From: Priapulus caudatus
Taxonomy: Eukaryota
Direction: 5' to 3'
Assembly (NCBI RefSeq): GCF_000485595.1
Contig: NW_014577535.1
Span: 111,370 to 164,183, forward strand
DNA length: 52,814 nucleotides
Shown here: one piece after another, positions 14,611 through 51,310 of the stretch
Layout: every line of letters begins with the position of its first letter
Numbering within the stretch: position 1 is the stretch's first letter
Translations under genes and position numbers: made by a program
The notes under the pieces: model-generated
What the model was told of the DNA's origin: nothing
Seen by the model: only the letters and a program-made list of their open reading frames with translations
Databases searched by the model: none

Positions 14611-14733
14611 TCAAATGTCAGTCATCTTCGCAGGCTGCAGAAAGATAGTGCGCCCCTGCTTGTCTCCTGCAATCAGGGTTCCATTGCAGCTGCACAGACT
14701 TGTCACCTCGGTTTTCGCATAAAACTGCCCAAC
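14611..14733 (-). CDS. TEP1: TEP1 last coding exon (stop codon TGA at 14611-14613)
   Basis: Acceptor gatgttttcag|GTTGGG; [40 protein letters not shown] (human C-terminus LAVGDVQGNVYFLNWE*). Confidence 0.65.
   Translation of the reverse strand, partial: VGQFYAKTEVTSLCSCNGTLIAGDKQGRTIFLQPAKMTDI

Positions 14734-51310: not shown

Follow-up and report, generated by a model that had tools for sequence, protein, structure and literature searches.

A locus of the priapulid Priapulus caudatus that very probably encodes, as a single gene, an orthologue of the vault protein TEP1

The minus strand of a contig of the priapulid Priapulus caudatus very probably carries, as one gene, an orthologue of TEP1 (telomerase protein component 1, or vault protein p240). 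Within the window (i.e., the whole stretch of 52,814 nucleotides that was analysed, positions 111,370 to 164,183 of contig NW_014577535.1 in assembly GCF_000485595.1), the predicted gene spans approximately 35–37 kb, comprises about 45 coding exons, and would encode a protein of roughly 2,400–2,590 aa. TEP1 is a component of the vault particle, and its TROVE-containing region binds vault RNA (PMC3762200). Its orthologues are TeTIR-NACHT-WD40 proteins with an N-terminal extension made of a TROVE and a VWA domain, and their DUF4062 domain is a TIR-like NADase, which in the case of TEP1 is active inside vaults (10.64898/2026.05.01.722283; 10.64898/2026.09.21.753143; 10.64898/2026.09.04.749371). 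An initial annotation had proposed a minus-strand TEP1 orthologue at this place, and Pfam profiles, named database homologues, a solved human domain, and a 45-exon gene model all agree with that identification.

The gene model was built with a purpose-written exon-chain finder, which combines codon log-odds with splice-site weights, and with a protein-to-genome spliced aligner guided by 13 database homologues (P0005, P0027, P0094, P0100, P0103, P0241-P0245, P0251, P0269, and P0276). All 13 thread colinearly through the locus and agree on exon boundaries across the TROVE, vWA-like, and DUF4062 parts. For the NTPase and WD40 exons, a human TEP1 sequence served as a lead only, and codon statistics, splice scores, and Pfam checks were used alongside it. 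The resulting 45-exon chain is frame-consistent, with GT-AG boundaries throughout and no internal stop; its introns measure 138–10,186 bp (median 343 bp), and the coding sequence amounts to 7,461 or 7,764 nt (2,486 or 2,587 aa), depending on the choice of 5' alternative. The least certain predicted parts are exon 1, linker exons 7 and 8 (44678-44547 and 43964-43867), the exon 9 acceptor (42380, 42339, or 42336), exon 37, and exons 41–43. The splice logic was validated independently on a plus-strand gene nested in intron 11, which was assembled likewise and gave exactly the RefSeq protein XP_014669740.1. Two earlier attempts were discarded: an ab initio exon chain that placed six false exons inside the 10-kb intron while overlooking several genuine ones, and a spliced alignment on the human TEP1 sequence that split the vWA region into spurious mini-exons, a threading corrected by the database guides. 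The features of the locus are collected in Table 1.

Table 1. Predicted features of the TEP1 locus and its surroundings (positions within the window).
Feature	Position	Strand	Exons or basis
TEP1 coding extent with good support, exons 2–45 (first TROVE exon to stop)	14611..49152	minus	frame-consistent GT-AG chain, spliced alignments of homologues, Pfam
180-codon ORF 'METIES...LLC*'	50768..51310	minus	candidate TEP1 exon 1 (51310-50781 or 51310-51056) or separate gene
TROVE domain	42255..49152	minus	exons 49152/49124-48939, 48652-48556, 48204-48012, 45938-45781, 45230-45030, 44678-44547, 43964-43867, start of 42380-42156
vWA-like domain (Pfam DUF5920)	30241..42380	minus	exons 42380-42156, 41802-41650, 41385-41308, 31121-30913, 30393-30241; divided by the large intron
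Intron 11, the largest (10,186 bp)	31122..41307	minus	holds the nested plus-strand gene and a 1.1-kb (TGCG)n-like repeat
Nested gene, two exons, 439 aa	35957-36279 + 38879-39875	plus	within TEP1 intron 11; identical to XP_014669740.1
DUF4062 / TeTIR (TIR-like NADase) domain	28506..30018	minus	exons 30018-29842, 29410-29168, 28740-28506
STAND NTPase module (NACHT-type P-loop, winged-helix, and APAF1-like helical domains)	23946..28234	minus	Pfam and motifs
WD40 propeller region, exons 26–45	14611..23840	minus	WD40 260 bits, Beta-prop_TEP1_2nd (Pfam)
Last two exons (16142-16032, 14733-14611), with TEP1 C-terminal propeller signature and stop	14611..16142	minus	Beta-prop_TEP1_C

In the protein database, the best named matches to the locus are annotated as 'telomerase protein component 1(-like)' and come from amphioxus (Branchiostoma), acorn worm (Saccoglossus), sharks, Octopus, and spiders. 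The database matches to the locus products included neither a full-length TEP1 nor any TEP1 protein of Priapulus, and the search with the WD40 half was dominated by bacterial WD40 proteins and supplied no TEP1 guide. The human sequence gives a single colinear BLASTP alignment with the draft protein (residues 191-2579 against human 287-2624, 30% identity), to be read as a lead only; its numbering fits every residue named in 10.64898/2026.09.21.753143 and 10.64898/2026.05.01.722283. An Rfam search of the window returned no matches. The seven peptides quoted in the initial annotation were all found on the minus strand at the positions that it implied, namely METIES (51310-51293), SRQFPFRF (45105-45082), GKPGSGKS (28075-28052), VVFIDGLD (27370-27347), and three others of 11 (45222-45190), 18 (30005-29952), and 13 residues (29373-29335). 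The stop codon that it had placed at 14611-14613 was read directly as TGA (14613-14611 on the minus strand), after '...LQPAKMTDI'.

The N-terminal TROVE domain is recognised by Pfam with an E value of 1.4e-97 (328 bits), and its exon boundaries are identical when derived from eight different homologue guides, although the match opens only at profile position 50-61 of 442. The two linker exons inside it are basic (Lys/Gly-rich) and have uncertain boundaries; the linkers of the homologues are also basic and variable. A vWA-like domain follows directly, colinear with homologues that carry PF19334. Its DUF5920 match is a marginal pass: scored on the isolated piece, it reaches 28.7 bits (cutoff 27), and with more surrounding sequence 26.4 bits.

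The DUF4062 (TeTIR) domain, matched by Pfam with an E value of 9.7e-16 (58 bits), lies immediately upstream of the NTPase and includes the catalytic glutamate (codon 29250-29248 on the minus strand) and the RWG loop (29879-29871). Its alignment with the human domain solved in PDB entry 11gz_A ('Telomerase protein component 1') runs from end to end, over 214 of 220 residues (E 1.5e-55), and has no gaps at either of the two exon junctions within TeTIR. Counterparts of human F902, S905, R914, R942-W943-G944, C959, R976, and E1008 are conserved, whereas R908 is replaced by Lys and R954 by Gly; the roles of these residues are taken from two bioRxiv preprints (10.64898/2026.09.21.753143; 10.64898/2026.05.01.722283). 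Since the counterparts of the catalytic residues are kept, the priapulid protein is likely to be an active NADase, as far as can be judged from its sequence.

Downstream of TeTIR, a NACHT-type STAND P-loop NTPase is indicated by its Walker A (GKPGSGKS) and Walker B (VVFIDGLD) motifs, by an AAA_16 match of 47.7 bits (cutoff 32.6), and by an APAF1_C helical domain of 26.9 bits (cutoff 22.8), though the Pfam NACHT model itself stays below its cutoff (22.2 against 26.7 bits), as does HTH_NWD1 (24 against 27). The profile scan of the assembled coding sequence for which the initial annotation had called gave good matches for TROVE, DUF4062, and WD40; of the four families named there, the NACHT model alone fell short. 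The C-terminal WD40 propellers include both TEP1-specific Pfam families, Beta-prop_TEP1_2nd (200-250 bits, cutoff 89) and Beta-prop_TEP1_C (43-97 bits, cutoff 32). The latter match extends over positions 1-71 of the 73 in the profile, leaving eight residues to the stop codon; thus, the 3' end of the coding sequence is complete. Exon 37 carries an acidic/basic insertion ahead of a propeller blade. The same annotation had described the orthologue as complete, with every domain in order; the order from TROVE through the vWA-like domain, DUF4062, and the NACHT-type P-loop to WD40 stands, but the claim overreached at the 5' end.

Several repeats lie in the introns of this part of the gene. A GC-rich minisatellite with a 23-nt unit (24597-24763, 7.3 copies, 95% identity) sits directly upstream of the exon 25 acceptor at 24587. 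With three open frames, it was considered as coding sequence, a candidate that was rejected on homology, which puts the start of exon 25 after the minisatellite. Further minisatellites occur at 19629-19782 (25-nt unit, 6.2 copies, 96% identity) and 26576-26699 (45-nt unit, 2.8 copies). The intron between exons 25 and 26 contains, on the plus strand, a partly degenerate (TTAGGG)n array of approximately 16 units (24203-24296); the presence of a telomere-type repeat within the gene of a telomerase-associated protein is probably a coincidence.

The two halves of the proposed gene lie 10.2 kb apart with another gene in the gap, and DUF4062-NACHT-WD40 proteins devoid of TROVE occur in animals as well as in bacteria; both points could be taken to mean that a Ro60-like TROVE/vWA gene ends near 41300 and a separate NWD-like DUF4062-NACHT-WD40 gene starts near 31100. 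Such a gap would, however, divide the vWA-like domain, whose DUF5920 match straddles the 41308|31121 junction. The Branchiostoma floridae TEP1-like protein P0005 runs without a gap over the same junction, its residues 155 and 156 falling on exons 11 and 12, respectively, and this unbroken alignment across a 10,186-bp intron argues against two genes. The clean frame and phase at 41308 and 31121, to which the initial annotation had appealed, were borne out: both sides are in phase 0, and the donor (score 4.6) and acceptor (3.9) are strong and among the best in the gene. In addition, TROVE, DUF5920, and DUF4062 are found together in single chains of many homologues, some of which are transcriptome-derived (P0241, P0242, P0244, and P0245), and no Ro60 structure was matched at E<=0.01. 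In the open frame around exon 12, the conserved strand IDNIIVV is not preceded by any Met, and exon 12 would therefore not be a first coding exon unless the domain were truncated. We consider a division into two genes very improbable; that the TROVE half and the DUF4062-NACHT-WD40 half form one gene, as had been proposed, is supported by these sequence comparisons. Still less credible is a decaying or non-functional copy of TEP1. The missing N-terminal TROVE segment, the substitution of two arginines of the human active-site region, and the weakness of certain donors would fit decay, but neither a stop nor a frameshift interrupts 7.5-7.8 kb of coding sequence in 45 exons, the catalytic Glu, the RWG loop, and Walker A and B are retained, and conservation at the domain level extends along the entire length. 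The priapulid TEP1 is apparently an ordinary, intact copy of a known gene in an already annotated genome.

The nested plus-strand gene corresponds to the RefSeq entry 'uncharacterized protein LOC106810801 isoform X2' of Priapulus caudatus. This exact match and that of the 180-aa ORF at 51310-50768 to XP_014669737.1 identify the DNA as that of Priapulus caudatus (Priapulida, Ecdysozoa), and the two lie together on a contig of 233,430 bp. Going by its number alone, which falls between those of the two matched proteins, RefSeq accession XP_014669738 may be TEP1. Its product consists of a signal peptide, one FN3 domain, a transmembrane helix, and a proline-rich tail; the fn3 match reaches 24.5 bits (cutoff 25) and spans the splice junction. 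Isoform X1 of LOC106810801 (469 aa) has 30 extra N-terminal residues supplied by an upstream exon. The intron of the nested gene contains a degenerate 1.1-kb (TGCG)n / 26-34-nt GC-rich repeat (37437-38548), which yields long spurious ORFs in several frames and misled the ab initio exon chain.

From TROVE through to the C-terminal propeller, the predicted priapulid protein has its domains in the order of human and mouse TEP1, and it ends at the same place of the TEP1_C profile; the human TeTIR aligns end to end with the priapulid one, with the catalytic Glu, the RWG loop, a Cys, and two Arg conserved. Human TEP1 is 2,627 aa long, and the priapulid protein, at approximately 2,490-2,590 aa, is of similar size. 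In contrast to its mammalian counterparts, it lacks detectable 30-residue TEP1_N repeats, has a Lys/Gly-rich linker in TROVE and an insertion in exon 37, carries Lys and Gly in place of R908 and R954, and shows about 30% identity overall (a lead only). The closest named sequences are invertebrate TEP1-like proteins (P0005 and P0276 of Branchiostoma floridae, P0025 of Saccoglossus kowalevskii, and P0269 of Octopus bimaculoides), with which the TROVE and DUF4062 blocks share 57-61% identity and the exon products are colinear, whereas the N-terminal regions ahead of TROVE do not align at all.

Two other protein families share parts of this architecture. Ro60 (RO60/TROVE2), a TROVE and vWA protein of approximately 540 aa, has the same RNA-binding module of TROVE and vWA-like domains but ends after the latter, whereas the priapulid frame continues into TeTIR-NACHT-WD40; Ro60 was rejected as the identity of the locus for this reason, with no Ro60 chain matched at the threshold given above. 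NWD1/NWD2 and the prokaryotic DUF4062-NACHT-WD40 proteins (NIR/Swarozyc/Avs-type) likewise have TeTIR/DUF4062 directly upstream of a STAND NTPase and repeats, and bacterial and archaeal proteins of this type match the locus at 30-34% identity in the protein database. They are, however, without the N-terminal TROVE-vWA pair that marks TEP1 orthologues, and an NWD1/NWD2-type assignment was discarded given the TROVE-vWA exons joined in frame upstream.

The 5' end of the gene is a different matter. The initial annotation had placed the first Met of TEP1 in the METIES ORF and had read there the N-terminal repeats of TEP1, visible as an internal duplication of approximately 175 bp. TEP1_N repeats of approximately 30 residues have been described for mammalian TEP1 and are probably not universal. 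In the priapulid, they find no support, because the 180-aa ORF has no Pfam match at E<=1 and hence none to TEP1_N. The duplication was not recovered either: Tandem Repeats Finder reported no repeat in this ORF, and the sole repeat present is a 26-nt pair of 77% identity, 171 nt apart (50988-51013 / 51159-51184), with a self-BLASTN E value of 0.05-0.12, while self-BLASTP gives the identity match alone. The pair translates to QTLDLKPQL and QSLNLKPQL, that is, a nine-residue motif occurring twice. The assignment of METIES as the first Met also lacks support, given a separate gene in RefSeq, weak donors, and no homologue.

Whether the ORF belongs to TEP1 at all is about evenly balanced. It may instead lie outside the gene, as a separate orphan gene (LOC106810797) or an untranslated/uORF leader, with the start of TEP1 downstream (e.g., at the Met of 'MFIVQSF' in exon 2). 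Exactly this 180-aa product is annotated in RefSeq as a protein of its own (XP_014669737.1, 'uncharacterized protein LOC106810797'), and a search of 1.84 billion representatives matched only the ORF itself. Near the end of the ORF there is no acceptable donor; the sole reasonable one, at 51056, puts half of the ORF into an intron. The TROVE score gains nothing from inclusion of the ORF (311.2 vs 311.0 bits), and an HMM of the conserved segment preceding 'DPEF.LKLALY', built from 37 homologues, found nothing significant in it or elsewhere in 51700-49160 and did not separate the 5' alternatives. On the other side, the ORF shares the strand of TEP1 and precedes the first TROVE exon by 1.6 kb, and a 185-codon open frame is improbable by chance at 38-42% GC. 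Frame-compatible joins to TROVE exist (51310-50781 to 49152, giving 2,587 aa, and 51310-51056 to 49124, giving 2,486 aa, with equal Pfam scores). Neither the conserved stretch of about 50 residues expected before 'DPEF..LKLALY' nor the first ~50 TROVE profile positions were found anywhere in 51700-49160, and the tail of the ORF (KLLNAYG...SPAL) bears a weak, non-significant likeness to the conserved pre-TROVE motif. Other TEP1 proteins carry 190-350 poorly conserved residues ahead of TROVE, which makes the METIES ORF a plausible first exon of TEP1, with a chance no better than even. It is unlikely, in our estimation, that the ORF is a true taxon-restricted N-terminus of TEP1 in which the doubled 'TL(D/N)LKPQL ... 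SDIL' is related, in degenerate form, to the TEP1_N repeat of mammals ('LPDLKT...PDIL'); if it were, the N-terminal repeat would predate vertebrates and RefSeq would have split the gene wrongly.

Across the window, base composition varies between 35 and 58% GC, microsatellites are abundant, and exons are short, as in animal DNA. At 6123-6351 there is a run of approximately 229 C (95% purity), followed by (CT)n at 6364-6512; the homopolymer may be an assembly or sequencing artefact. The minus strand also has an open segment at 9236-9517, 'KVCIFMGSVRHRRLCDRVTVFVRELLENTGHEVII', with a weak likeness to the beginning of NADPH-dependent FMN reductases (Pfam FMN_red, below cutoff at E 0.037); it possibly belongs, as an exon, to the gene that follows TEP1 downstream. 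On the plus strand, two ORFs of 160-180 codons overlap in different frames at 2596-3151 and contain '...LKLALTLRHLAPGTKY...'; they presumably resemble the N-terminal part of Harbinger/PIF transposases; a Harbinger-type transposase remnant at 2600-3150 was nevertheless rejected, as Pfam gave it no support.

By analogy with mammalian TEP1, the TROVE-vWA pair of the priapulid protein would bind small RNAs (vault RNA) and anchor the protein within vaults, oligomerisation would be under the control of the STAND NTPase and WD40 part, and the TeTIR/DUF4062 domain would, going by its sequence, act as the TIR-like NADase. TEP1 has long been known and the genome was sequenced and annotated before, and the locus thus has scant value beyond annotation. 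In that respect, a TEP1 without the start of TROVE, immediately preceded by the 180-aa 'uncharacterized protein', likely points to a problem in the 5' annotation. The retention of the catalytic residues in the priapulid domain fits the statement of the 2026 preprints that the NADase activity has been kept by TEP1 homologues across diverse eukaryotes.
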